The translations under genes and the position numbers were made by a program. Positions 2,838 to 54,326 of a DNA stretch of 58,598 bases are shown here, in pieces. Numbering within the stretch: position 1 is the stretch's first letter; each line of letters starts with the position of its first letter. The notes beneath the pieces were generated by a model. That model made no database searches and was not told where the DNA came from. It saw nothing but the letters and a program-made list of their open reading frames with translations. This DNA is from an uncultured Candidatus Saccharibacteria bacterium (GTDB taxonomy: Bacteria > Patescibacteriota > Saccharimonadia > Saccharimonadales > 2-12-FULL-41-12): assembly GCA_964615775.1 (NCBI GenBank), contig CAZTQB010000001.1, positions 1 to 58,598 on the forward strand, read 5' to 3'.

Positions 2838-3377
2838 CTACGAACCCTGGCAGTATGTTGAACCGTTCTCCAGGAGAATGGTGATTGAGTAAGCACGCTC
2901 AGATGATGCACCATCGCAGTTTTTACCGACTGAATAAACGGCGATATCTGTTGTTGGGTCACCCTCACTAGTGAGAGCTGTAACCTGACCAAGACTAGAG
3001 GTTGAAAGATCGCTTGGAGCTGGAAGCTGTCCGCGATTAGTCGTTTGGAAGTTCAGTACATCAGTAGTCAAAACGGTAACGTCATTTTTACGGGCAGTAT
3101 CGCGCTGGCTCTTCTGTAATGCGGGAAGTGCAGCTTGTACCATCCAAACGATCAGTAAGCTAATAACGATGCCAATGACGCCCGTAACAATACCCGCTAC
3201 TGCCTTTTTGTGACCTTGTTTCTTGAGAGAGTTCACGCCAAGGATAATAGCAATAACACCTAAAGGAATGCCAATATACCATACGATAGAAGCAACGATT
3301 GCCAAAATGCCAAGTACTAATGCCGCCGTTGAGTGTCCTTGACCACCCGTCTGTTCTGTTTTGCTCGCTTCTGACAT
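2838..3377 (-). CDS. DUF4190-like TM hairpin fused to a type IV pilin-like domain
   Basis: N-terminal A.LVLGILAI...G..LG.IAIILG pattern, then ALPALQKSQRDTARKNDV..L......Q..NRGQLP, which resembles the alpha-1 helix of Saccharibacteria pilins. GAGG SD upstream. Confidence 0.65.
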   Translation of the reverse strand: MSEASKTEQTGGQGHSTAALVLGILAIVASIVWYIGIPLGVIAIILGVNSLKKQGHKKAVAGIVTGVIGIVISLLIVWMVQAALPALQKSQRDTARKNDVTVLTTDVLNFQTTNRGQLPAPSDLSTSSLGQVTALTSEGDPTTDIAVYSVGKNCDGASSERAYSITILLENGSTYCQGS

Positions 3378-3406
3378 GTCGTATGTTCCTCACTTTCTCT
3401 AAAATT

Positions 3407-4135: not shown

Positions 4136-5065
4136 TTACCTCGCTAGTTGCAATGCACTACGGTTAATGTATTTATTGCACTCAGACACGATATACGAAG
4201 TGAGAAGACGATCAGAAGCCTCGGTGCAGTAATAAGAGAATAGCTCTGTTGGCTGGAGGGTCTGCTTCTCTGTGTATGATTTTACACGCTCTTGCATTAC
4301 AGGGTCTTTACCATAGATAGAGATAAGGTCACTTGTGAGCTTCGTTTTCGTGCCGTCATCAAGCGCCTTGAACCATATATGATGCAGGTACTCATGAGCA
4401 ACGACAACATCGAGAACATTGCCAGTCGTTCCTTGTTTTACGGTCAGTACGCCGTATGACCAGTTGCCAGCTGTGTCGATAAATGCTTGGTACTCACCGG
4501 CCTGTCCGTCAAGAACTTTGTTGTCATAACCAGCAACGAACTTTGTTTCAACCCACTTCATGTCAGATGCGCCGACCTTAGCTAAGGATGCGTTGATTGT
4601 TGCATCAGACTGTAGGTCTGGCTTGAACAGTGTATTGGTCTGTTGCACATTGATTCCTGCGTTAGCAGTAGATACTTGCGGATCAGGAATTACTACCGTG
4701 ACAATCGTGCCGACGATAATGCCAAGCCACATATAGGTACGAAGTACGTTGGCGCTGATCCTATTGAGCGGATTCTTCTTGCGGGACTTGAGCCAGATAA
4801 ACAGATAGCAAACGATAACGAGCACGCCCACATAAATCGACCACAATGCTCGTATATGATAGCCTTGCGGGCTATTCATATTTCCACCATCTACTATGGC
4901 ATTCCCAACGGTAATGGCAATAATAAACGCAACGAAGCCGATGATGAATGGCCAGCCTATGATCCAAAGGATAGCCGAAAGTACCCTGCGCTTACGGGAA
5001 TAAGTCTTTAGCTTATGTTCTGTCTTCTCGATTTTTTCAGTCTTCTCTTTTACTTCGGTCGTCAT
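4136..5065 (-). CDS. Membrane-anchored zincin-like metallopeptidase
   Basis: Three N-terminal TMs; AHEYLH (HExxH) with downstream TELFSY. Start set at 5065 (TATAAT 6 nt upstream). Confidence 0.65.
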   Translation of the reverse strand: MTTEVKEKTEKIEKTEHKLKTYSRKRRVLSAILWIIGWPFIIGFVAFIIAITVGNAIVDGGNMNSPQGYHIRALWSIYVGVLVIVCYLFIWLKSRKKNPLNRISANVLRTYMWLGIIVGTIVTVVIPDPQVSTANAGINVQQTNTLFKPDLQSDATINASLAKVGASDMKWVETKFVAGYDNKVLDGQAGEYQAFIDTAGNWSYGVLTVKQGTTGNVLDVVVAHEYLHHIWFKALDDGTKTKLTSDLISIYGKDPVMQERVKSYTEKQTLQPTELFSYYCTEASDRLLTSYIVSECNKYINRSALQLAR

Positions 5066-5100
5066 GGCTCGATTATACAATAAAAAGTATTATTAATTAA

Positions 5101-5271
5101 TCTCTTCACTTCACGTACTTGTTCATTATACGGGTCGAGCAAACGCATCAAGGTCGTATTCACCCCTGAATACGATTTTCTTTTAATTGATGTATTCAAG
5201 GGGAATCTCCACCTGTGACGCCTTTGCCATGCGACCCCGTCAGATGACTCCGTTACGTAAAGTAAAGGAGA
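5101..5271 (+). promoter_or_regulatory. Long imperfect hairpin 1, Frpo-like ssDNA promoter candidate
   Basis: Arm 5101-5173 is complementary to arm 5192-5271; ATTATA (TATAAT on the minus strand) at 5125-5130 falls opposite a mismatched segment; the hairpin directly precedes the first small gene. Confidence 0.65.
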
Positions 5272-5276
5272 ATATC

Positions 5277-5558
5277 ATGCACGTAGCAGAAGCAACACAA
5301 ACTGTAGCCACCGAGTATAACGGGTGGAGTAATAGAGAGACGTGGTTAGTGAACATGTGGCTCACTAACGACAGATGCTATTACGATGAGCTTTGTGAAA
5401 TCATCAAGAACTTCGATCTTGATGAGCAAGCAGAGGAACTTGAGCGATACGTCCGATTTATCACAGATACCGACAACAGTATCGGTATTGTGGGCGACCT
5501 GCTCAACACTTCTCTCGGTCGAATTGACTGGGTTGAAGTCGTCGCAGCGAACCAGTAG
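5277..5558 (+). CDS. Small phage/MGE-type protein with YNGWSNRETW motif (DUF7249-like)
   Basis: AAGGAG SD at 5265-5270 fixes the start at 5277; the upstream ORF extension runs through the hairpin. Confidence 0.75.
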   Translation: MHVAEATQTVATEYNGWSNRETWLVNMWLTNDRCYYDELCEIIKNFDLDEQAEELERYVRFITDTDNSIGIVGDLLNTSLGRIDWVEVVAANQ

Positions 5559-5563
5559 CGAAA

Positions 5564-5590
5564 TAGTCCCGAGCATGACTAAAACTGCTC
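5564..5590 (+). repeat. Pseudoknot repeat copy 1: TAGTC-CCGAGCAT-GACTA-AAAC-TGCTC
   Basis: S1 TAGTC/GACTA, S2 GAGCA/TGCTC; begins 5 nt after the stop. Confidence 0.85.
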
Positions 5591-5614
5591 AAACTAAGCT
5601 TTAAGGAGGCTGAT

Positions 5615-5812
5615 ATGCGTACAACTGTCATTAGTAAGGAAACAAAAGAACAAATCGAGCGCCATAGGCGGTTCTGGGTGCAAGTCGCAGAACAGCACGA
5701 CTGGTACACCGAGCCTTTCTACATCCAGGTATGGCTTGACGATAAGGGCGATGTAGCCGATAGCGTATCTCACATAGGTATGACATCGGACATCATAATC
5801 CCAAGTCTCTAG
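5615..5812 (+). CDS. Hypothetical 65-aa protein
   Basis: AAGGAGG SD upstream; array context. Confidence 0.8.
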   Translation: MRTTVISKETKEQIERHRRFWVQVAEQHDWYTEPFYIQVWLDDKGDVADSVSHIGMTSDIIIPSL

Positions 5813-5820
5813 CAGATGAC

Positions 5821-5847
5821 CGTCCTGAGCATGACGATAAACTGCTT
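5821..5847 (+). repeat. Pseudoknot repeat copy 2: CGTC-CTGAGCAT-GACG-ATAAAC-TGCTT
   Basis: S1 CGTC/GACG, S2 GAGCA/TGCTT (one G-U); begins 8 nt after the stop. Confidence 0.85.
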
Positions 5848-5886
5848 TTATTGTCATGTTGTACGGAACTGAGTGTGGTCGTGTAA

Positions 5887-6031
5887 GAGGCTTCCTCCCT
5901 CTGTCTTTTCATTATACGGGTGAACCACAAGCCCCAAGGTCGTTCGTCCCTTGGTAAACGTCAAGGGGCGCTCCACCTTGACCCTTGCGGATTCATCCCG
6001 AGCCCTTTTGACAGAGAGGCAGGAAGTCCTC
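5887..6031 (+). promoter_or_regulatory. Long imperfect hairpin 2, Frpo-like ssDNA promoter candidate
   Basis: GAGGCTTCCT..CTCTGTC pairs with GACAGAG..AGGAAGTCCTC. Shares TTCATTATACGGGT, CAAGGTCGT, TCAAGGGG and CTCCACCT with hairpin 1. ATTATA (5911-5916) falls in an internal bubble. Confidence 0.7.
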
Positions 6032-6053
6032 TCGATAAAGCAAGGAGGGTCTT

Positions 6054-6389
6054 ATGGACACCGAAACAATAGCAAACGAAACATCAGCAAAGATTGCTGC
6101 GTTGAATGACGCGGCACGCAGTAATGCTGCGAACTACATGGCGACACGAGGCATCATGTCGCTCGATGAAGTGACTATCAGTGAAATCTTCGTCGCCGTG
6201 CAGGACTTTAGCAAATTCACGGAAGACAACGATCCCTACGGCGAGCATGATTTTGGCTCGTTTACGGTAGCCGGTAACAAAGTCTTTTGGAAGATAGATT
6301 ACTACACACAGGACTTGTCTAGTGGGTGCGATCCGCTAGACCCGGGGTGTAGACGAGTTCTCACTATCATGTTAGCCGAGGAGTACTAG
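6054..6389 (+). CDS. DUF3768-domain protein
   Basis: IAALND..R, F..FTEDNDPYGEHDFG, FWKIDYY and RRVLTIMLAEEY are the DUF3768 pattern. Confidence 0.85.
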   Translation: MDTETIANETSAKIAALNDAARSNAANYMATRGIMSLDEVTISEIFVAVQDFSKFTEDNDPYGEHDFGSFTVAGNKVFWKIDYYTQDLSSGCDPLDPGCRRVLTIMLAEEY

Positions 6390-6403
6390 CTCCTCGGTTT
6401 TTT
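6374..6403 (+). terminator. Intrinsic-terminator-like hairpin with the stop codon in its loop
   Basis: CCGAGGAG-TACTAG-CTCCTCGG followed by TTTTTT. Confidence 0.6.
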
Positions 6404-6432
6404 AGTCCTGGGTAGGACTTATGAAACTGCCC
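6404..6432 (+). repeat. Pseudoknot repeat copy 3: AGTCC-TGGGTA-GGACT-TATGAAAC-TGCCC
   Basis: S1 AGTCC/GGACT, S2 GGGTA/TGCCC (compensatory relative to GAGCA/TGCTC). Confidence 0.8.
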
Positions 6433-6462
6433 GACAAAGTTTAATCCTAAAGGAGTTTAGAT

Positions 6463-6939
6463 ATGCATTACTTAGTACGATTGATAGTTGAAGCTGATAG
6501 CGCTGAAGAAGCGAATAGTCAGGCAGATTCCGTGATGATGGATCTCATCGAATGGAGAGAGTTTGACTGGTATCACACCGAAGCTGACGATAGCCGGTGG
6601 GAAGGTTGCTGGAAACCGATGCGTCTGAGCACCAAGAAAGCGCAAGCTATGGTACAGGATGCGATGCAAGGTCAACTTGCAGAGTTCAAGCAAACAATAG
6701 CGACTATCCGCATTATGCTAGACAGCTATAGTGACGAGCAGATATTTAACGAGGAGTTCCAGCAAGTGGATGGACACTACCTGTCTCGATATCAGTTCAG
6801 TCGAGCGAGCGGCTACCATGCGAATGCGTGCCAGCTTTTCGGTGAGGGTGGAGATTCCATCACGAGCCAGAAGCAGCTTGAATGGTACTTGAAAGATACC
6901 GCTAGATTATGGGTTGTCCAAGTAGACTGCCATAACTAA
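6463..6939 (+). CDS. Hypothetical 158-aa acidic protein
   Basis: AAGGAG SD; array context; no family recognised. Confidence 0.8.
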   Translation: MHYLVRLIVEADSAEEANSQADSVMMDLIEWREFDWYHTEADDSRWEGCWKPMRLSTKKAQAMVQDAMQGQLAEFKQTIATIRIMLDSYSDEQIFNEEFQQVDGHYLSRYQFSRASGYHANACQLFGEGGDSITSQKQLEWYLKDTARLWVVQVDCHN

Positions 6940-6945
6940 GCAGTA

Positions 6946-6972
6946 CGTCCTGAGCATGACGATAAACGGCTC
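6946..6972 (+). repeat. Pseudoknot repeat copy 4: CGTC-CTGAGCAT-GACG-ATAAAC-GGCTC
   Basis: Near-identical to copy 2; S2 GAGC/GCTC. Confidence 0.85.
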
Positions 6973-6998
6973 GATTTTTTTAATTTAAGGAGAATGTT

Positions 6999-7304
6999 AT
7001 GAAGATTAGTGAAAATATCCTACGAGAAGAATATAGCTACCGTGGCGGCGGTTGCGAGCTGGACTTGACTGAGTTTGGCTACGAAGATGAGCTTTTGAGT
7101 GCTTACCAGAATTATCTAGGTGGTGGCATGCTTGGCTCGATTGGCAATAGCTGTACTGTCGAGGATTGGCGGCAAGATGAGAAACTCATTAAGCTAGCAC
7201 ATGAGCTGCGAGAATACTATCAGGATCGGATGTATGAGTTCGAGTGTATCGACGAATATAACGAGATAACTGAGGGGCGACCCATCAGCTATCCAGGGCT
7301 GTAA
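6999..7304 (+). CDS. Hypothetical 101-aa highly acidic protein
   Basis: AAGGAG SD; very rich in E, D and Y. Confidence 0.8.
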   Translation: MKISENILREEYSYRGGGCELDLTEFGYEDELLSAYQNYLGGGMLGSIGNSCTVEDWRQDEKLIKLAHELREYYQDRMYEFECIDEYNEITEGRPISYPGL

Positions 7305-7312
7305 GCAGCCCT

Positions 7313-7339
7313 CATCCTGAGTAAGATGTAAAACTACTC
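7313..7339 (+). repeat. Pseudoknot repeat copy 5: CATC-CTGAGTAA-GATG-TAAAAC-TACTC
   Basis: S1 CATC/GATG and S2 GAGTA/TACTC; both stems show compensatory changes. Confidence 0.85.
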
Positions 7340-7709
7340 ATCAGGAACAGGCACACTGGCCGCACCATGCAACATAGCCCTTTGGGCTAGTTGCATCGTC
7401 CGTCCAGCTCAAGCAGCAGATAACGACACGCTCCATACTTACCCCCTCGGACTATCACATGCGTCCCGCAGTGAAGTCCTCGTGTGCAAGAATGAATCAT
7501 GTCCTGGACGTACCTCTGGTACGACATCGGTTAATAATTAAATGGTTAGTCACCATCAAGCACGACGGGCGGCACGTATTCTCCTCTGGAGAAAACGTAC
7601 ACACCCGACGCACTCGCTGGCAACAAAGGCTCGTGATAGATCAAACAAGCGTGACCATGACACGACGCAAGCTTACGCGTCATCGTCACGCTATCCTCAT
7701 ATCCGTAAA
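7340..7709. other. Hairpin-rich non-coding region, candidate oriT or replication origin
   Basis: Inverted repeats at 7367-7396 (ATGCAAC.TAGCCC/GGGCTAGTTGCAT) and 7648-7692 (AGCGTGAC/GTCACGCT), between the small-gene array and the relaxase-family gene. Confidence 0.4.
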
Positions 7710-8495
7710 CTAATCGAAAAGCGCAGTCTGTTTTTTCGGGTTAAAGGGGGAAGACCAGATATGTGCGGCTGGTTTGTCGAATGCCGTGAGTGCTGAGGCG
7801 AGTATCGGCAGTTCACCCTCATCCATGCCCATGCCCTCTAGCTTCTTGTTTGTGGTATAGAGAAAGCTGAACTTTGCGGCGCTATCTTTTAAGACAAAAC
7901 ATATATGGGGATAGTTATCACCCTCCCAGCTTTCATCTTCGCTATGCGTGATAATTTCATCGAGGCGCTTGCGGACTATATATGGTGGCTTATCATCGGC
8001 AATGACTACAATAGCCTCTTTACCGTCTGGTGTGCGTATGTAGAGGTCTGGACGGTTTTTGGGGAATTGTCGGAAACGGTTGATCTCGGTCTTTGAGAAC
8101 ACGGCCGAGTCTTTAGGCAGGTATTTGATAATAGCCGTGTAGCATTGTATGAGCTTCATGCTATGACTAACGAAATCATCAGTCATTTCATCATTCTTGT
8201 ACAGGGCATGTACAACAGACTCTTTGACATCCATGAGCTTGCGGACGGCCGTAACGCCGCTTTTATTCAGGTAATAATAGGCAGGCTTTCTATCAATACG
8301 GAACTTCGGCTCATAGACTTTTGCCACTAACTTTTTACTAACTAATTGCTCTAATACTTCATAGACACTGACCCTATGAATACCCATAACATCTGCTAAT
8401 AATCCTGCTGATACAAATCGAAACTTGAATAATAACTTTAAGACACGTTGCTGCTGACCTGTTAGTTTTTGACCTTTTACATCTCCATCCATCAC
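7710..8495 (-). CDS. Replication-relaxation family protein (Replic_Relax-like)
   Basis: N-terminal wHTH (LT..QQRVLKLLFKFRFVS..LLA), YYL...G, conserved H (FVSHS) and RPDLY. Confidence 0.75.
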   Translation of the reverse strand: MMDGDVKGQKLTGQQQRVLKLLFKFRFVSAGLLADVMGIHRVSVYEVLEQLVSKKLVAKVYEPKFRIDRKPAYYYLNKSGVTAVRKLMDVKESVVHALYKNDEMTDDFVSHSMKLIQCYTAIIKYLPKDSAVFSKTEINRFRQFPKNRPDLYIRTPDGKEAIVVIADDKPPYIVRKRLDEIITHSEDESWEGDNYPHICFVLKDSAAKFSFLYTTNKKLEGMGMDEGELPILASALTAFDKPAAHIWSSPFNPKKQTALFD

Positions 8496-9169: not shown

Positions 9170-9394
9170 ATGGATCGCAACAGTACAAACAATTCGCAGG
9201 AAGTCGCCGCAGGCTTCTACTCTCCGAGTGAGGAGCAGATTGTATTGCTGCAATCTATATTGCAGAAAGAATCACATGAATCAGTTTCGCTCAAAGAAGC
9301 GCAGGAGGTGGGCATACAGCTCGTGTCACTCTACGAGTGTCTGGCAAGGGATAGGACGCCCCCTATTGGAGTAAGAGGAAATGATGAATCCTGA
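9170..9394 (+). CDS. Small protein overlapping the recombinase start; putative recombination directionality factor
   Basis: GGAGG SD; coupled to the recombinase. The RDF role is inferred from position only. Confidence 0.55.
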   Translation: MDRNSTNNSQEVAAGFYSPSEEQIVLLQSILQKESHESVSLKEAQEVGIQLVSLYECLARDRTPPIGVRGNDES

Positions 9395-10880
9395 TGAAAT
9401 AGGCGTTATTCTCGCTCGTGTCTCAACTAAGGGGCAGGAAGATGAGGGTTATTCGCTTGAGGCTCAGGTTAAAAATCTGAGGATGTATTGTACGAATACG
9501 CGAATCAATCCGATTAAAGTCTTCAAGATTGCTGAGTCCGCATCAAAGACTGAGCAGCGCAAGATATTCAAAGAAGCCATGCAGTTTGTGGAGAAAAAAC
9601 ACGTTAAGAACCTCATTGTCGAAAAGGTAGACCGCCATGTGCGCAATCTGCATGATGCGGTCGAGACGCATGACTGGCTCACTAAAGACGAGACGAGAAA
9701 AGTACACTTCGTTAAAGATGCAATTGTTCTACATAAAAACTCTCGATCTCAAGAGTGGCTTAACTGGGGTATGCGTGTCGTTCTTGCTAAGAACTACATC
9801 GATAACCTACGTGAAGAAGCCATGAAAGGATGGGCCGAAAAACTAGCGCAAGGCTGGATGCCAGCACCACCACCCCCAGGCTATATGACCGTTGTTCGCG
9901 ATGGTAAGCGTATTCACGACTTCAACCCCGAAACCTACAAGTCTATGCAGCGAATTTTTCAGCTCATGCTTGAACCTCAGTACACCATAGAAACGATCCG
10001 TCATAAAATGACAGAGTTTGGGCTGGTGACCGGTAAAGGCAGACCATTCTCCAAGAGCCATGCACATAGAATACTGACAAATCCATTCTACATAGGAACC
10101 ATTCGCTTTAATGGCAACGAATACCCAGGTAAGCAGCCACACCTGATATCCGAAGAGCTGTTTAATGCAGTACAAGCCAAAATCTCACGCAAACGACCTG
10201 CGAAGTATCGCAAGCACAACCCATTACTCAAGGGTGTAATGATCTGTGAACACTGTGGCAAGAACATTACGTGGCAGCTCCAGAAAGGCCGATTGTACGG
10301 CTCATGTCAGCGTAAGTTAGAGGCTTGCAAGAAACAGAGCTTTGTCCGCGAAGATGCCGTCCTAGAGCTTATCCAAGGCAAGCTGGACGAACTTATCTGC
10401 CCATCTCCTGAGGTTATAACGTGGCTGACGACGTTACTGCATCAAGACTTCCAACTGTCAGTCAACAACGTCGAAGAGGCCCAGAAAGCCCTTGACGAGC
10501 GAATTGAGCGTATCAAGCGGATGGATGACATGCTGTATGACGATAAGCTGGCCGGACTTATTTCTGGCGAGCGCTATCAGAGTAAGCATGATTCATTCAT
10601 TAGTGAAATTAATGATCTGCAAAAGCAGAAAGGAGGCATAAGCCAAGAATACGAAACTAAGTACATGAATGGGATATCCGAGATAGAGCTGTCACAGGAC
10701 GCTAAACGGCTATTCGCAGACGAAAATACAAGCAGTGACGACAAACGAATAATTTTAACCAAACTATTCGAGAAGATCAGCCTAAAAGACAATTCCGTAT
10801 CTGTTACGTACACCAAACTGACACAGGCAATAGCTCGAAATAGCGGTTTAAGTAAGGAGATTTTGGGATATGCAAAATAA
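9381..10880 (+). CDS. Large serine recombinase (integrase)
   Basis: Catalytic ARVST..Q...GYSLEAQ, EKVDR..R, recombinase domain, zinc ribbon (CEHCG...C..C) and coiled coil. Confidence 0.95.
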   Translation: MMNPDEIGVILARVSTKGQEDEGYSLEAQVKNLRMYCTNTRINPIKVFKIAESASKTEQRKIFKEAMQFVEKKHVKNLIVEKVDRHVRNLHDAVETHDWLTKDETRKVHFVKDAIVLHKNSRSQEWLNWGMRVVLAKNYIDNLREEAMKGWAEKLAQGWMPAPPPPGYMTVVRDGKRIHDFNPETYKSMQRIFQLMLEPQYTIETIRHKMTEFGLVTGKGRPFSKSHAHRILTNPFYIGTIRFNGNEYPGKQPHLISEELFNAVQAKISRKRPAKYRKHNPLLKGVMICEHCGKNITWQLQKGRLYGSCQRKLEACKKQSFVREDAVLELIQGKLDELICPSPEVITWLTTLLHQDFQLSVNNVEEAQKALDERIERIKRMDDMLYDDKLAGLISGERYQSKHDSFISEINDLQKQKGGISQEYETKYMNGISEIELSQDAKRLFADENTSSDDKRIILTKLFEKISLKDNSVSVTYTKLTQAIARNSGLSKEILGYAK

Positions 10881-10962: not shown

Positions 10963-11037
10963 TGGCTGGGAGTGAGGGATTCGAACCCCCGAATGCCAGG
11001 ACCAAAACCTGGTGCCTTACCACTTGGCCAACTCCCA
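10963..11037 (-). tRNA. tRNA-Gln (anticodon UUG)
   Basis: Minus strand TGGGAGT acceptor stem, anticodon arm CCAGG-TTTTGGT-CCTGG, GTTCGAATC T-loop and encoded CCA. Confidence 0.97.
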
Positions 11038-53415: not shown

Positions 53416-54326
53416 TGAATAAAGCCTGCTGACTGACTAACAATCACCACTAAGGCCACAAAAGCCACTAGGGTTGCATCTAAAAGAGGGTGTTTCATTA
53501 TAAACTGCTCGCTACTGGATAGTGATTTTTTGATACCGCGGGCATGTTTGAGACCAAGATACATTACACACAAACCTGCAAAAAAGCCAAGAGCTATAGT
53601 AATCCAGGGCATCTTGCCGCCAGTTATCAGCTGAGCATAGCTGATGTTTGCGTTTGCCGAAAGTGAGCTTGAGCTTTTAGCAAATTCGCTAGCAACATTA
53701 AGCTGACTTTTGTTGTCTTGCGAGGCCAAAACTTCGGGTGATGGTAGGCCATACATAGCAACTACTATCGTTTCGTTGCCTTTACCTTGGAAATTCTCAG
53801 CATTGGCAACACCAAACCCTACCTCACTTAAGTTGTTGTCCAGAAGATTTGCTCGATGAGAGGCACTATTTAACCAACCAGAAACGACCGAGTTACTTGA
53901 ATTAAAACCGTAAGCCAAATTTTCGGCTGCTTTTAGGTAAGAGTAGTGAGTATTGTCAATAAATGTCCACGGTTCATTACCATCTGGAGTATTGTGCGAC
54001 CAATAATTACGCTTAACCATATCATCGGCCTTTGCTTGTGCAGCCTTATCAAGTTCTTTGTTGTGAGTAAGGTTAGAAAGATTATGCTCACTACGTGTTT
54101 TATTGGTTGCTTCTAAAAGCCCATTATCGGATATCTGGCTAGAGTAGCCTAAAACTTCGCTATTTTGGGACTGGTGACTAATATTACCAAAAGTTGATAA
54201 AAACAACCCTAATCCGACCATAACTATTAATGGCAAATAAGGTGCATAAGCCTTCAAAAACGCCTTGGAATGGCGTTCTTTATGATGGGCTTTATGGTAT
54301 TTTGGTTGTTTTTGTTTGAGTGGCAT
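53412..54326 (-). CDS. CAP (SCP) domain protein with TM segments
   Basis: L..AAQAKA.DM....YWSH, ENLA and WLNS..HRAN. Confidence 0.9.
   Translation of the reverse strand: MPLKQKQPKYHKAHHKERHSKAFLKAYAPYLPLIVMVGLGLFLSTFGNISHQSQNSEVLGYSSQISDNGLLEATNKTRSEHNLSNLTHNKELDKAAQAKADDMVKRNYWSHNTPDGNEPWTFIDNTHYSYLKAAENLAYGFNSSNSVVSGWLNSASHRANLLDNNLSEVGFGVANAENFQGKGNETIVVAMYGLPSPEVLASQDNKSQLNVASEFAKSSSSLSANANISYAQLITGGKMPWITIALGFFAGLCVMYLGLKHARGIKKSLSSSEQFIMKHPLLDATLVAFVALVVIVSQSAGFIH

Follow-up and report, generated by a model that had tools for sequence, protein, structure and literature searches.

A compact H-type pseudoknot behind the genes of a Saccharimonadales mobile-element array, and its recurrence after stop codons across bacterial phyla

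Genes and features of the array

The array described here comprises two short operons of an integrated mobile element of the Saccharimonadales, in which a small structured motif punctuates the genes. Positions refer to the window, that is, the whole stretch of DNA that was analysed (58,598 nucleotides). The following features were annotated.

5101..5271, minus strand: long imperfect hairpin upstream of gene 1 (ssDNA fold −35.3 kcal/mol, z −6.6)
5277..5558, plus strand: gene 1, DUF7249 protein of 93 amino acids from the ATG at 5277 (Pfam PF23907, E 3.9e-11)
5615..5812, plus strand: gene 2, 65 amino acids, no family match
5879..6035, minus strand: second, homologous hairpin upstream of gene 3 (ssDNA fold −38.3 kcal/mol, z −4.3; alignment)
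6054..6389, plus strand: gene 3, DUF3768 protein of 111 amino acids (Pfam PF12599, E 1.6e-28)
6374..6403, plus strand: intrinsic-terminator-like hairpin and T run, overlapping the gene 3 stop just before motif copy 3 (terminator scan)
6463..6939, plus strand: gene 4, 158 amino acids, no family match
6999..7304, plus strand: gene 5, 101 amino acids, no family match
7710..8495, minus strand: Replic_Relax (relaxase-like) gene converging on the array (Pfam PF13814)
9381..10880, plus strand: large serine recombinase, adjoining a tRNA gene
10966-11037, minus strand: tRNA gene, the only Rfam match at gathering thresholds in the window

The serine recombinase and the tRNA gene mark the edge of the integrated element, with housekeeping genes lying beyond the latter; the Replic_Relax gene adjoins the array in related elements as well. 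Both hairpins carry a TATAAT sequence on the minus strand (5130->5125 in the first and 5916->5911 in the second), which in the gene 1 hairpin is preceded 15-16 nt upstream by TTGATG. This hairpin is a candidate single-strand (Frpo-like) promoter, which would drive the plus-strand genes only upon intramolecular folding of the minus strand. The array sits in a probable leading region entering cells as ssDNA, and the two operons are probably expressed from their hairpin (single-strand) promoters upon entry into a new cell. A paper on leading regions (PMC11541004) mentions neither the motif nor the domains of the array.

Five copies of a pseudoknot, one after each gene

According to the original prediction, the stop codon of every array gene is followed by a copy of the same motif. 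All five copies were found where they had been predicted, with spacers of 6-14 nt between the stop codon and the first base of stem 1. They are given below with the segments in the order S1a / loop / S1b / linker+AAAC / S2b and with the score of covariance model R1.

5565-5590, plus strand: copy 1, 6 nt past the gene 1 stop (5556-5558); stem 1 AGTC/GACT, stem 2 GAGCA/TGCTC; AGTC / CCGAGCAT / GACT / A-AAAC / TGCTC; 38.8 bits
5821-5847, plus strand: copy 2, 8 nt past the gene 2 stop (5810-5812); stem 1 CGTC/GACG, stem 2 GAGCA/TGCTT (one G.U); CGTC / CTGAGCAT / GACG / AT-AAAC / TGCTT; 39.8 bits
6404-6432, plus strand: copy 3, 14 nt past the gene 3 stop (6387-6389); stem 1 AGTCC/GGACT, stem 2 GGGTA/TGCCC (one U.G); AGTCC / TGGGTA / GGACT / TATG-AAAC / TGCCC; 24.2 bits
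6946-6972, plus strand: copy 4, 6 nt past the gene 4 stop (6937-6939); stem 1 CGTC/GACG, stem 2 GAGCA/GGCTC (one A.G mismatch); CGTC / CTGAGCAT / GACG / AT-AAAC / GGCTC; 39.7 bits
7313-7339, plus strand: copy 5, 8 nt past the stop of gene 5, the last gene (7302-7304); stem 1 CATC/GATG, stem 2 GAGTA/TACTC; CATC / CTGAGTAA / GATG / TA-AAAC / TACTC; 42.5 bits

The stems are those listed originally, except that the mismatch reduces stem 2 of copy 4 to 4 bp and that stem 2 of copy 2 contains a wobble; the linker of copy 3 (TATG) is longer. When the covariance model was run over the whole window, the five copies scored 24-42 bits (E 4e-5 to 2e-10) and no sixth copy was present in the 58.6 kb. The next-best match reached 15 bits and was devoid of structure; hence, the motif is restricted to the array and stands far above chance. 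A weak match at 53481-53513 was rejected for want of stems. The copies lie 257-583 nt apart with genes in between; copy 2 is followed by the second putative hairpin promoter rather than by a gene, and no credible same-strand gene lies downstream of copy 5. An intrinsic terminator was rejected as an identity for the motif: the terminator scan called none of the five copies, and its lone terminator-like site (6374-6399) precedes copy 3. Among the matches from the wider search described below, the 3' flank is 36-45% T and TTTT directly follows 7 of the 251 copies listed.

The motif belongs to a very widespread family

A single degenerate pattern, scanned over IMG/VR contigs and genomes, matched at least 120 of the former and at least 119 of the latter. 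Hosts among the matches listed include Saccharibacteria, Omnitrophota, Planctomycetota, Desulfobacterota, Bacillota, Actinomycetota and others, and the motif occurs in chromosomes as well as in phages and mobile elements, at several copies per locus. Three cultured phages with unrelated hosts (a mycobacteriophage, a cyanophage and a Paracoccus phage) and an Acinetobacter plasmid carry the motif, while none of 5,426 E. coli genomes matched. The carriers include Mycobacterium phage Labelle, cyanophage S-RIM4 and Desulfofundulus thermosubterraneus DSM 16057. A BLAST comparison of the array as a whole with plasmids and phages returned only a coding match for DUF3768, in Rhizobium plasmids. The motif is neither system-specific nor specific to the candidate phyla radiation, and the earlier view that the five copies are more than simple duplicates is in keeping with one family spread far beyond the window. 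In phages and mobile elements, the neighbours of the motif have no functional theme in common (they include genes for DUF932, SSB, DNA polymerase and ribonucleotide reductase, and many of no assigned function); upstream genes of ~335 codons were rejected as major capsid protein genes and belong to the DUF932 family. A copy on an RNA-virus-like contig (L027, with RdRP_3) has two mismatches and is probably a chance match. Occasional tandem duplicates of the motif were seen.

Rfam 15, searched at gathering thresholds over the whole window, matched the tRNA alone. Even at E<=10, the region 5000-7800 gave just mir-302_2 and group-II-D1D4-4, chance matches lying off the motif, which upholds the original statement that it fits no known RNA family. 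A literature search by sequence, micro-peptide, DUF932/DUF3768, new ribozymes and exonuclease-resistant pseudoknots found no description of it. By eye, boxA/Nus sites, CsrA sites, the bacterial SECIS and the hammerhead core were rejected, as they do not suit the conserved bases of the motif.

Two known families resemble the motif in being small, repeated pseudoknots of mobile DNA. STAXI (RF01728) is found in mobile elements, close to genes for SSB, antirestriction proteins, topoisomerase and integrase; no function has been assigned to it, and whether it acts as RNA or as ssDNA has been raised as a question there, too (Weinberg et al., 2010; PMC2864571). However, STAXI copies are tandem (2-3), were reported from Enterobacteriales and often contain UUCG loops (PMC2864571), whereas the present motif comes after single genes with a set minimum spacing to the stop codon, occurs in many phyla and is without a match in E. 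coli; its copies in the window are non-tandem and the STAXI model did not match them at E<=10. The type III antitoxin RNAs (ToxI) are repeated pseudoknots of 34-45 nt with an A-rich cleavage site, found in phages and plasmids. They form tandem repeats directly before a ToxN-family toxin gene, whereas unrelated genes split the copies in the window, which has no tandem array and no ToxN/AbiQ gene; the neighbours are DUF7249, DUF3768 and genes of no assigned family.

The motif folds on the sense strand

The motif is an H-type pseudoknot selected for its structure. Its segments run in the order S1a-S2a-S1b-S2b, with covariation backing both stems. Stem 1 has 3-4 bp (N-R-U-C with G-A-Y-N), loop 1 is C-Y, the junction is a single nucleotide, stem 2 has 5 bp (G-R-G-Y-A with U-R-C-Y-C) and loop 3 reads N-N-A-A-A-C; at least 13 bases are near-invariant. 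In alignments of the viral and genome matches listed, both sides vary in four of the nine pairs. Paired cells amount to 97.6% in the 131 viral-contig instances among the matches listed, compared with 88.5% after shuffling and 21-47% when the partners were slid; the corresponding values for the 102 genome instances among them are 94.6%, 88.1% and 30-45%. Not one of 500 shuffles equalled the observed covariation score, either in the viral or in the genome set, so that the compensatory stem changes originally ascribed to structural selection hold in larger and independent collections.

Positions outside the search pattern conform to the prediction; T at −1, for example, is present in 133/133 viral and 117/120 genome matches listed. 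Pair 5-18 is GC in 69, AU in 60 and GU in 2 of the matches listed, with zero mismatches, and pair 11-31 is AU in 110, GC in 19 and GU in 2. Matches not conforming to the pattern bring U-A and C-G to pair 5-18, and all 30 of them keep AAAC. The single stems are weak (−1.7 to −6 kcal/mol; +0.5 for stem 1 of the commonest viral variant), with a fourth stem 1 pair forming in 64 of the 102 genome copies among the matches listed. We infer triplex contacts: C8 of loop 1 would contact the invariant G12-C30 pair, and the AAA of loop 3 would occupy the minor groove formed by the invariant U-A and C-G pairs.

G.U or U.G cells number ~84 and A.C or C.A cells ~23 among the matches listed (~4:1). This excess indicates that the structure acts on the sense strand, most simply as RNA, and none of the 246 loci listed has copies on both strands. 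These data bear on an earlier idea, namely that an ssDNA recombination site turns each gene with its motif into a mobile cassette; a nicking site of this kind was considered as well. Gene order differs between homologous arrays, a check proposed originally: the window has g1-g2-g3-g4-g5, while related candidate-phyla-radiation arrays have g1-g3-g2 (L138) or g3-g1 (L184), each gene keeping its own motif. Such reordering, and the position of the array in a probable leading region entering cells as ssDNA, would suit a DNA-level element, but homologous recombination between 25-nt repeats explains the shuffling equally well. Moreover, the wobbles lie on the sense strand, whereas the antisense strand is the one expected to be transferred, and the complementary strand would bear A.C mismatches in ~20% of the copies listed. 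No recombinase co-occurs with the motif, which is also found in dsDNA phages and at fixed chromosomal loci and keeps to stop codons at a ribosome-sized spacing (see below). We therefore regard a DNA-level element as highly improbable. Integron attC sites are no closer: the R/L box symmetry (RYYYAAC...GTTRRRY) is lacking, and the phages and chromosomal loci that carry the motif are without integron integrases.

Anchoring to the stop codon of the upstream gene

A same-strand gene lies upstream of 148 of the 163 copies evaluated among the matches listed. In the 66 intergenic regions of at least 150 nt among them, the motif lies within 20 nt of the upstream stop in 40, but within 40 nt of the next start in just 6. 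The motif also occurs past last genes and past the gene preceding a promoter; in operons, the next start codon follows 19-30 nt beyond its end. The original claim that it marks gene 3' ends and not 5' leaders agrees with this anchoring. The spacer between the stop codon and stem 1 was determined for 148 copies located after ORFs of at least 60 codons among the matches listed: it is 5 nt in 29, 6 nt in 20, 7 nt in 15 and 8 nt in 14 copies and then decays, while only 3 of the 148 have a spacer below 5 nt. The offsets fall into the three frames as 65/47/36, with no reading-frame preference. The anchoring to the upstream stop instead of the next start, the 5-nt floor of the spacer and an adjacency to tRNA genes (below) are new here. 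The floor, the tRNA adjacency and a tiny-ORF setting (below) each constrain the mechanism and had not been anticipated originally.

With the stop codon in the A site and a 5-nt spacer, pairing starts at +12 counted from the P site; the boundary of the ribosomal helicase reportedly lies near +11. The 5-nt floor is thus the edge of the terminating ribosome's mRNA channel, just beyond the helicase boundary. Taken by itself, the floor indicates no more than that the fold has to coexist with the terminating ribosome, and several functions fit.

One of them, which we consider rather unlikely, is a ribosome-directed element: the pseudoknot would dock at, or resist, the mRNA entry site of a ribosome decoding the stop codon, and so tune termination or recycling, insulate the next cistron against post-termination sliding, or hold a subunit for re-initiation. 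The abrupt start of the spacers at 5 nt and their peak at 5-8 nt speak for it, since frameshift and read-through pseudoknots use a spacing of 5-8 nt from the A-site codon. The −1 frameshift pseudoknots of luteovirids (BWYV) comprise 26-28 nt, with a 2-nt loop 1 starting from C, a one-base junction and an A-rich loop 3. The motif would resemble these triplex pseudoknots, and the read-through pseudoknot of MuLV, in size, topology and position 5-8 nt past the A-site codon, a layout that would be in line with a ribosomal target by analogy. A near-universal sequence would likewise suit contact with a universally conserved ribosomal surface, and the distance of 19-30 nt to the next start in operons also counts in favour. 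However, the luteovirid and MuLV elements are recoding signals of eukaryotic RNA viruses, whereas the motif has neither a slippery site nor a frame preference nor an extension ORF. A frameshift or read-through stimulator was rejected, as all three frames are used, a conserved heptamer is absent and one frame of the motif carries UGA/UGA/UAA; without frame bias, slippery sequence or an extended ORF through the motif, recoding is unlikely. Copies that come after a last gene, or ahead of a promoter or a tRNA gene, lack any downstream cistron on which they could act, and those in long intergenic regions sit near the stop and far from the start, which counts against re-initiation, not against termination.

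Adjacency to tRNA genes and possible processing

A same-strand tRNA gene begins 4-14 nt after 28 of 293 copies among the matches listed (~10%), involving five tRNA identities, while a tRNA gene 31-300 nt away was seen for just three. Conceivably, the motif is itself an RNA processing site, either a very small self-cleaving ribozyme or a site for a universal endoribonuclease, at which the transcript would be cut into single-gene mRNAs; RNase P, reading stem 2 and the 3' tail as a mimic of an acceptor stem, is a candidate. The element is small and pseudoknotted, its unpaired bases C8 and AAAC are strongly conserved, and its distribution, which takes in many phyla, chromosomes as well as phages and mobile elements, and several copies at a locus, is like that of the twister, hammerhead and pistol ribozymes in bacteria. 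One copy per gene would also parallel the RNase III sites of the T7 early operon and the tRNA punctuation of mitochondrial transcripts. The distal end of stem 2 is the invariant G10-C32 pair, preceded by U or C at position 9 and followed by A at +1 in 58% of the copies listed; ACC follows 25 and ACCA 13 of the 251 copies listed.

Against processing, the ACCA tail is a minority feature that none of the five window copies has, and the coaxial helix comprises 8-9 bp as compared with 12 bp in the acceptor/T arm of a tRNA. With 26-29 nt, the motif is far below any known natural self-cleaving class. It consists of two short helices only, unlike the known classes tested (hammerhead, twister, pistol, hatchet, HDV-like), whose Rfam models did not match; by inspection no known core fits, the CUGANGA...GAAA core included. 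Furthermore, a role in cleavage alone does not predict the strict 5-nt floor, and a genuine substrate is already available to RNase P at copies followed by a tRNA. On balance we judge a processing site unlikely.

The tRNA junctions recall MALAT1/MEN-beta and mascRNA, in which a compact, A-rich triplex-type structure directly precedes an RNase P substrate, and the cut makes a 3' end that the structure shields; the 28 motif-tRNA junctions listed would be the analogue. MALAT1 and MEN-beta are eukaryotic nuclear lncRNAs of a different fold, with a U.A-U triplex and a 3' A tract. Only ~10% of the motif copies listed precede a tRNA.

A possible cap or boundary of the mRNA 3' end

As our preferred, albeit tentative, reading, we propose that the compact pseudoknot, folded against the terminating ribosome, caps or defines the 3' end of the mRNA. 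It would be a cis-acting mRNA element placed as near to the stop codon as is possible outside the mRNA channel of the terminating ribosome; in this position it would remain folded during translation of the upstream gene. Acting as a boundary for the upstream cistron, it would halt 3'-to-5' decay before the stop codon is lost, following endonuclease or RNase P cuts farther downstream, and would do so without terminating transcription of the operon. Once RNase P had cut at an adjacent tRNA, the upstream mRNA would end in the pseudoknot. The spread across phyla, including three cultured phages, fits a mechanism that uses universal machinery only.

REP/BIME elements and kindred 3' stem-loops shield the upstream cistron from 3' exonucleases, and REPs within ~15 nt of a stop codon are said to interact with the terminating ribosome. 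Like these and other enterobacterial 3' stabilisers, the motif is a short repeat found after genes, both within operons and at their ends, and it follows cistrons on the sense strand as members of this class do; its protective function is putative. However, REPs are long, GC-rich palindromic hairpins restricted to particular lineages, whereas the motif is a 27-nt, weak-stemmed pseudoknot, near-identical across phyla and with a 5-nt exclusion zone. A role involving RNase J (a 5' exonuclease) was dropped because a copy resides on an Acinetobacter plasmid; RNase J is not known to occur in this lineage.

Several observations argue against a cap. It is not evident how a fold with such weak single stems could stop RNase R or PNPase without added stability from tertiary contacts or a partner, and the near-invariance of bases across phyla seems to exceed what a passive roadblock needs. 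Copy 3 comes after a terminator-like hairpin, so that only transcripts reading through the latter would contain it, and at one locus (L204) an intrinsic terminator 8 nt after the motif makes a cap redundant. An active device of a type not yet described in bacteria, be it the smallest natural self-cleaving ribozyme or a universal module docking at the mRNA entry site of the terminating ribosome, would likewise accord with the 5-nt floor, with the near-invariance of unpaired bases and with the spread across phyla. We rate this as improbable; if true, phages, conjugative elements and some chromosomal micro-ORFs would set the fate of each cistron without host-specific factors.

If confirmed, the motif would represent a new and very widespread RNA family with hundreds of instances in at least 12 phyla, and with an unusually sharp positional rule linked to the geometry of the terminating ribosome. 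It would allow the 3' boundary or the stability of each cistron in a polycistronic mRNA to be set independently of the host, which is relevant to the expression of the first genes of broad-host-range mobile elements in a new cell, and would offer a compact 27-nt part for the design of synthetic operons. It would also open up a testable link between translation termination and the 3'-end structure of bacterial mRNAs.

Copies at tiny conserved ORFs

In chromosomes, 71-72 of the 120 copies listed follow a tiny conserved ORF and precede genes for Rrf2, Fur, MarR, hemerythrin, Msr, AhpC or CopA. The stop codon falls within the pseudoknot at most of 71 such loci listed, so that the ribosome must unfold the structure there, a further point against a cap. 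The leader-like position of these copies, after a tiny ORF and before stress and regulator genes, is what a specific binding site might show, i.e., a small-ligand aptamer or a target recognised by a conserved RNA-binding protein, either of which would switch the fate of adjacent cistrons. The at least 13 near-invariant bases are consistent with this, as are the stems, whose marginal stability on their own is typical of folds needing a partner. Size and topology would match those of the smallest riboswitch aptamers by analogy with preQ1-I (RF00522), the smallest known aptamer, likewise an H-type pseudoknot with an A-rich 3' loop in the groove of stem 1. However, preQ1-I has other conserved bases and lies in 5' leaders of queuosine genes, whereas the motif has a 1-nt loop 2, is anchored to upstream stops and was matched neither by the preQ1-I nor by any other Rfam riboswitch model. 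A position after genes, last genes included, is atypical for riboswitches; the motif adjoins genes of unrelated function in phages and mobile elements, and no protein co-occurs with it across its contexts. A specific binding site is accordingly quite unlikely in our estimation.

The micro-peptide has no NCBIfam or Pfam family. A conserved coding sequence before genome copies was rejected as the C-terminus of a class II ribonucleotide reductase; it is this micro-ORF, conserved at 16-25 amino acids and unannotated in databases, to which attention is drawn here on account of its place beside redox and metal stress regulators.

Five pseudoknots behind the genes of a same-strand array

In the region 4800-7800 of the window, five genes lie on the same strand, and each of them is followed by a copy of an H-type pseudoknot of ~27 nt.

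5277-5558 (+), array gene 1, DUF7249 protein
5565-5590 (+), pseudoknot copy 1
5615-5812 (+), array gene 2
5821-5847 (+), pseudoknot copy 2
6054-6389 (+), array gene 3, DUF3768 protein
6404-6432 (+), pseudoknot copy 3
6463-6939 (+), array gene 4
6946-6972 (+), pseudoknot copy 4
6999-7304 (+), array gene 5
7313-7339 (+), pseudoknot copy 5

The layout behind each array gene is S1a / C-Y-G-R-G-Y-A-W / S1b / N1-4-AAAC / U-R-C-Y-C, and the distances from stop codon to stem 1 are 6, 8, 14, 6, and 8 nt for copies 1 to 5. The original prediction of five copies, each behind a stop codon, is confirmed apart from two details of the pairing: stem 2 of copy 4 contains an A.G mismatch, and copy 2 contains a wobble. 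A structural descriptor finds copies 1, 2, 3, and 5. A covariance model recovers all five at 24-42 bits in the 58.6-kb window, in which no further match exceeds 15 bits; the match at 15 bits lacks the stems. A hairpin resembling an intrinsic terminator and followed by T6 (6374-6403) overlaps the DUF3768 stop codon and abuts copy 3.

The motif belongs to a large family

The exact 19-mer of copies 2 and 4 is present in seven IMG/VR contigs, and with the degenerate pattern CCYGRGYAWGAYNNNAAACTRCYC there were at least 120 matching stretches in IMG/VR and at least 119 in species-representative genomes. Judged by these sequence matches, the motif is a large family and not a local repeat. Named hosts among the genome matches listed include Saccharibacteria and other bacteria of the candidate phyla radiation, Omnitrophota, Planctomycetota, Desulfobacterota, Aminicenantes, Bacillota, Actinomycetota, Chloroflexota, and others. 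Three cultured phages also have strong copies according to the covariance model (Mycobacterium phage Labelle, 49 bits; cyanophage S-RIM4, 47.8; Paracoccus phage ParKuw1, 34.6), in each case downstream of an annotated CDS on the same strand. A blastn search with a 33-mer yielded no match in 5,426 complete genomes of E. coli. A 4.6-kb contig encoding an RdRP_3-type RNA polymerase (IMGVR_UViG_3300030593_000001) carries a motif-like sequence with two mismatches right behind the polymerase ORF (3349-3381); the last 1.2 kb of this contig contain no ORF of at least 70 aa, and the motif-like sequence is probably a chance match.

Both stems covary, and the sense strand is selected

Among the matches listed, T precedes the search pattern in all 133 viral and in 117/120 genome matches, and the second base before the pattern pairs perfectly with the Y of GAY (G-C 68, A-T 63, and G-T 2 in the viral matches; 103, 14, and 1, respectively, in the genome matches). 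Since these positions outside the pattern are conserved or paired, the pattern matches are true homologues. Compensatory change in both stems, as originally proposed from the five copies, is borne out by the larger alignments of the matches listed: 97.6% of the cells are paired in the viral alignment (131 sequences) versus 88.5% in shuffles and 21-47% with slid partners, and 94.6% in the genome alignment (102 sequences) versus 88.1% and 30-45%. In neither alignment did any of 500 shuffles reach the covariation score. Matches found outside the search pattern also have U-A and C-G at pair 5-18 and A, U, or C at the junction base, while AAAC is retained in 30/30.

At the four variable pairs, G.U/U.G cells are about four times commoner than A.C/C.A cells. 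Among the matches listed, none of 246 loci has copies on both strands, and a same-strand gene lies upstream of 148/163 copies. The wobble excess, the restriction to one strand per locus, and the location on the coding strand of the flanking genes together indicate that the structure is selected on the sense strand; most simply, the selected form is mRNA. G is very scarce in the eight bases past stem 2 (4-15% at +2 to +8 in all sets), and position +1 is A in 58% of the copies.

The pseudoknot is anchored to stop codons

We examined 66 intergenic regions of at least 150 nt with same-strand genes on both sides (among the matches listed), using crude ORF calls of our own that miss ORFs below 60 aa. 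The motif is closer to the stop codon in 52 of them and closer to the start codon in 14; its distance to the upstream stop is at most 20 nt in 40/66, and that to the downstream start at most 40 nt in 6/66. It is hence tied to gene 3' ends and not to 5' leaders, as had been expected from the window.

For 148 copies behind an ORF of at least 60 codons (among the matches listed), we counted the bases between stop codon and stem 1. The spacer is most often 5 nt (n = 29), followed by 6 (20), 7 (15), and 8 nt (14) and then a decaying tail, and only 3/148 spacers are shorter than 5 nt. All three reading-frame registers are in use (65/47/36), and the stop codons are TAA (95), TAG (35), and TGA (18). 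With the stop codon in the A site and counting from the first P-site base, a 5-nt spacer makes +12 the first paired position, and the boundary of the ribosomal helicase and entry tunnel reportedly lies near +11 (Yusupova 2001; Takyar 2005). Because +12 is just outside this boundary, the fold appears to be as close to the stop codon as possible while still escaping the helicase of the terminating ribosome. Alternatively, the 5' flank may be part of the motif itself. Tandem copies of the motif, 1-45 nt apart, occur now and then.

Neighboring tRNA genes and micro-ORFs

Among the matches listed, the protein encoded upstream in viral contigs is DUF932/phrog_1221 in 23-24/97; the others are small unknown proteins, SSB, DNA polymerases, and ribonucleotide reductase. 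In the DUF932 group, a tRNA-Asp gene starts 4-14 nt past the motif. Overall, a same-strand tRNA gene is found at this distance behind 28/293 copies listed (Asp 20, Ser 3, Arg 2, Met 1, Asn 1, and one unassigned), whereas only 3/293 have one at 31-300 nt. DUF932 gene, pseudoknot, and tRNA-Asp(GUC) lie within ~15 nt of each other in the IMG/VR loci L010, L050, L076, L080, L089, L091, L115, L126, and others, and a conserved promoter-like stretch follows this cluster. ACC(A) stands behind stem 2 in a subset of copies, mostly with a tRNA gene next. The usual order is reversed in L070 and L095, where tRNA-Lys(CUU) ends 9 nt upstream of the pseudoknot.

Directly before 71-72 of the 120 genome copies listed is a micro-ORF that has 16-25 codons, a strong Shine-Dalgarno sequence, and the peptide consensus M-K-R-F-M-I/L-P/R-R-V-A-H-C-x-E/G-G-C. 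That it is coding follows from variation sitting at the third codon position. The peptide has no Pfam or NCBIfam model, and no description of it was found in the literature. One example is the following:

L204 (Desulfofundulus thermosubterraneus), 2180-2233, unannotated micro-ORF

The pseudoknot follows the micro-ORF every time, at this locus and at ~70 further genome loci (within L129-L244). D. thermosubterraneus DSM 16057 has a locus with the order csoR, micro-ORF, motif, copA. The shortest micro-ORFs stop 4 nt before stem 1, and the others read into the motif and end at one of its in-frame UGA/UGA/UAA triplets. Nearby genes encode Rrf2 regulators (12/66), hemerythrin, Usp, MarR, Fur, Msr, AhpC, prismane, and CopA; the micro-ORF often lies upstream of the Rrf2, Fur, MarR, hemerythrin, Msr, or CopA genes.

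A possible cap for the 3' end of the upstream cistron

By kind, we take the motif to be a cis-acting 3' mRNA element. We infer that its invariant bases fit a compact triplex pseudoknot, for which BWYV-type pseudoknots are the model: C8 of loop 1, proposed to be protonated in this triple, would contact stem 2 in its deep groove at the invariant G12-C30 pair, and A24-A26 of loop 3 would sit in the minor groove at U6-A17 and C7-G16, which are likewise invariant. Computed alone, each stem is weak (-1.7 to -6 kcal/mol), so that the fold needs both stems and, in addition, tertiary contacts or a partner. The motif could also be an aptamer or protein site, a reading we regard as distinctly improbable.

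The reading that fits most facts, which we favor tentatively and at less than an even chance, is that the pseudoknot caps the upstream cistron at its 3' end or marks its boundary there. Such a cap would cover the anchoring to stop codons, including those of last genes and of the gene preceding a promoter, the need for the fold to survive the terminating ribosome, the tandem duplicates, and independence from host-specific factors. Placed just before RNase P substrates, the motif would become the terminal structure of the upstream mRNA; the MALAT1 triple helix with its mascRNA parallels this placement. Against a cap stand the weakness of the stems, the very strong conservation of the sequence, the terminators before copy 3 and past the motif in L204, and the micro-ORFs with a stop inside the motif. 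An element directed at the ribosome for termination or insulation is a rather unlikely alternative, and it is quite unlikely that the motif is a cleavage site or ribozyme.

No description of the motif was found in Rfam 15 or in searchable papers, in keeping with the initial failure to match it to a known RNA family, but the supplementary tables of large motif screens may list it. A membership comparison found none of the defining features of catalogued families. STAXI is nearest by context, but its Rfam model does not match the motif and its arrangement differs; REP/BIME stabilizers are nearest by proposed function, luteovirid frameshift pseudoknots by geometry, and the MALAT1 helix with its tRNA-like arrangement by logic. 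That the motif is something categorically new strikes us as improbable.

The mobile element of the window and its relatives

The array converges on a relaxase-like gene (Replic_Relax). A large serine recombinase comes next, then a tRNA gene, with housekeeping genes past the tRNA.

7710-8495 (-), relaxase-like gene
9381-10880 (+), serine recombinase/integrase
10966-11037 (-), tRNA gene

A Candidatus Saccharimonadales MAG (L128) matches the window at 98-100% identity in array genes 4 and 5, in the relaxase, and in the integrase, which places the window in this lineage. Related elements of the candidate phyla radiation (L138, L232, L148, L184, L159, L161, L174) share the succession of small genes, opposite-strand relaxase-like gene, and serine integrase and vary in the content and order of the small genes.

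Order of array genes (g1-g5) and pseudoknots (PK) in related elements
L138: g1-PK-g3-PK-g2-PK
L232: g1-PK-g3-g5-PK
L148: g3-PK-g4-PK-X-PK
L184: g3-g1-PK
L159: g1-PK

The suspicion that homologous arrays differ in gene order was correct, as units of gene plus motif are reordered among the related elements, and recombination between motif repeats can explain the shuffling. A dedicated recombination site at the DNA level, suggested earlier in the form of an ssDNA site, is nevertheless highly improbable, given the strand polarity with wobbles on the sense strand, the ribosome-sized spacer to the stop codon, and the copies in dsDNA phages and at fixed chromosomal loci.

Two homologous imperfect hairpins of ~160 nt lie upstream of gene 1 and gene 3. 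Folded as ssDNA, they reach -35.3 kcal/mol (z -6.6) and -38.3 kcal/mol (z -4.3), respectively, and each contains a TATAAT box with a TTGATG or TTGGGG box (TTGNNG) 15-16 nt from it on the minus strand.

5101-5271, hairpin upstream of gene 1; TATAAT at 5130->5125 (-), opposite to the genes
5879-6035, hairpin upstream of gene 3; TATAAT at 5916->5911 (-), opposite to the genes

In duplex DNA, TATAAT would face away from the array genes; in a self-folded minus strand, it would be correctly set as the non-template strand for rightward transcription. The Frpo single-strand promoters of plasmid leading regions follow the same logic (PMC11541004), and the hairpins look like Frpo-type promoters of a conjugative leading region in a Saccharimonadales element. 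Between the last pseudoknot and the relaxase-like gene, the non-coding stretch contains a further strong hairpin, GCAACATAGCCC-TTT-GGGCTAGTTGC (7368-7394), which may be a terminator or the inverted repeat of an oriT.
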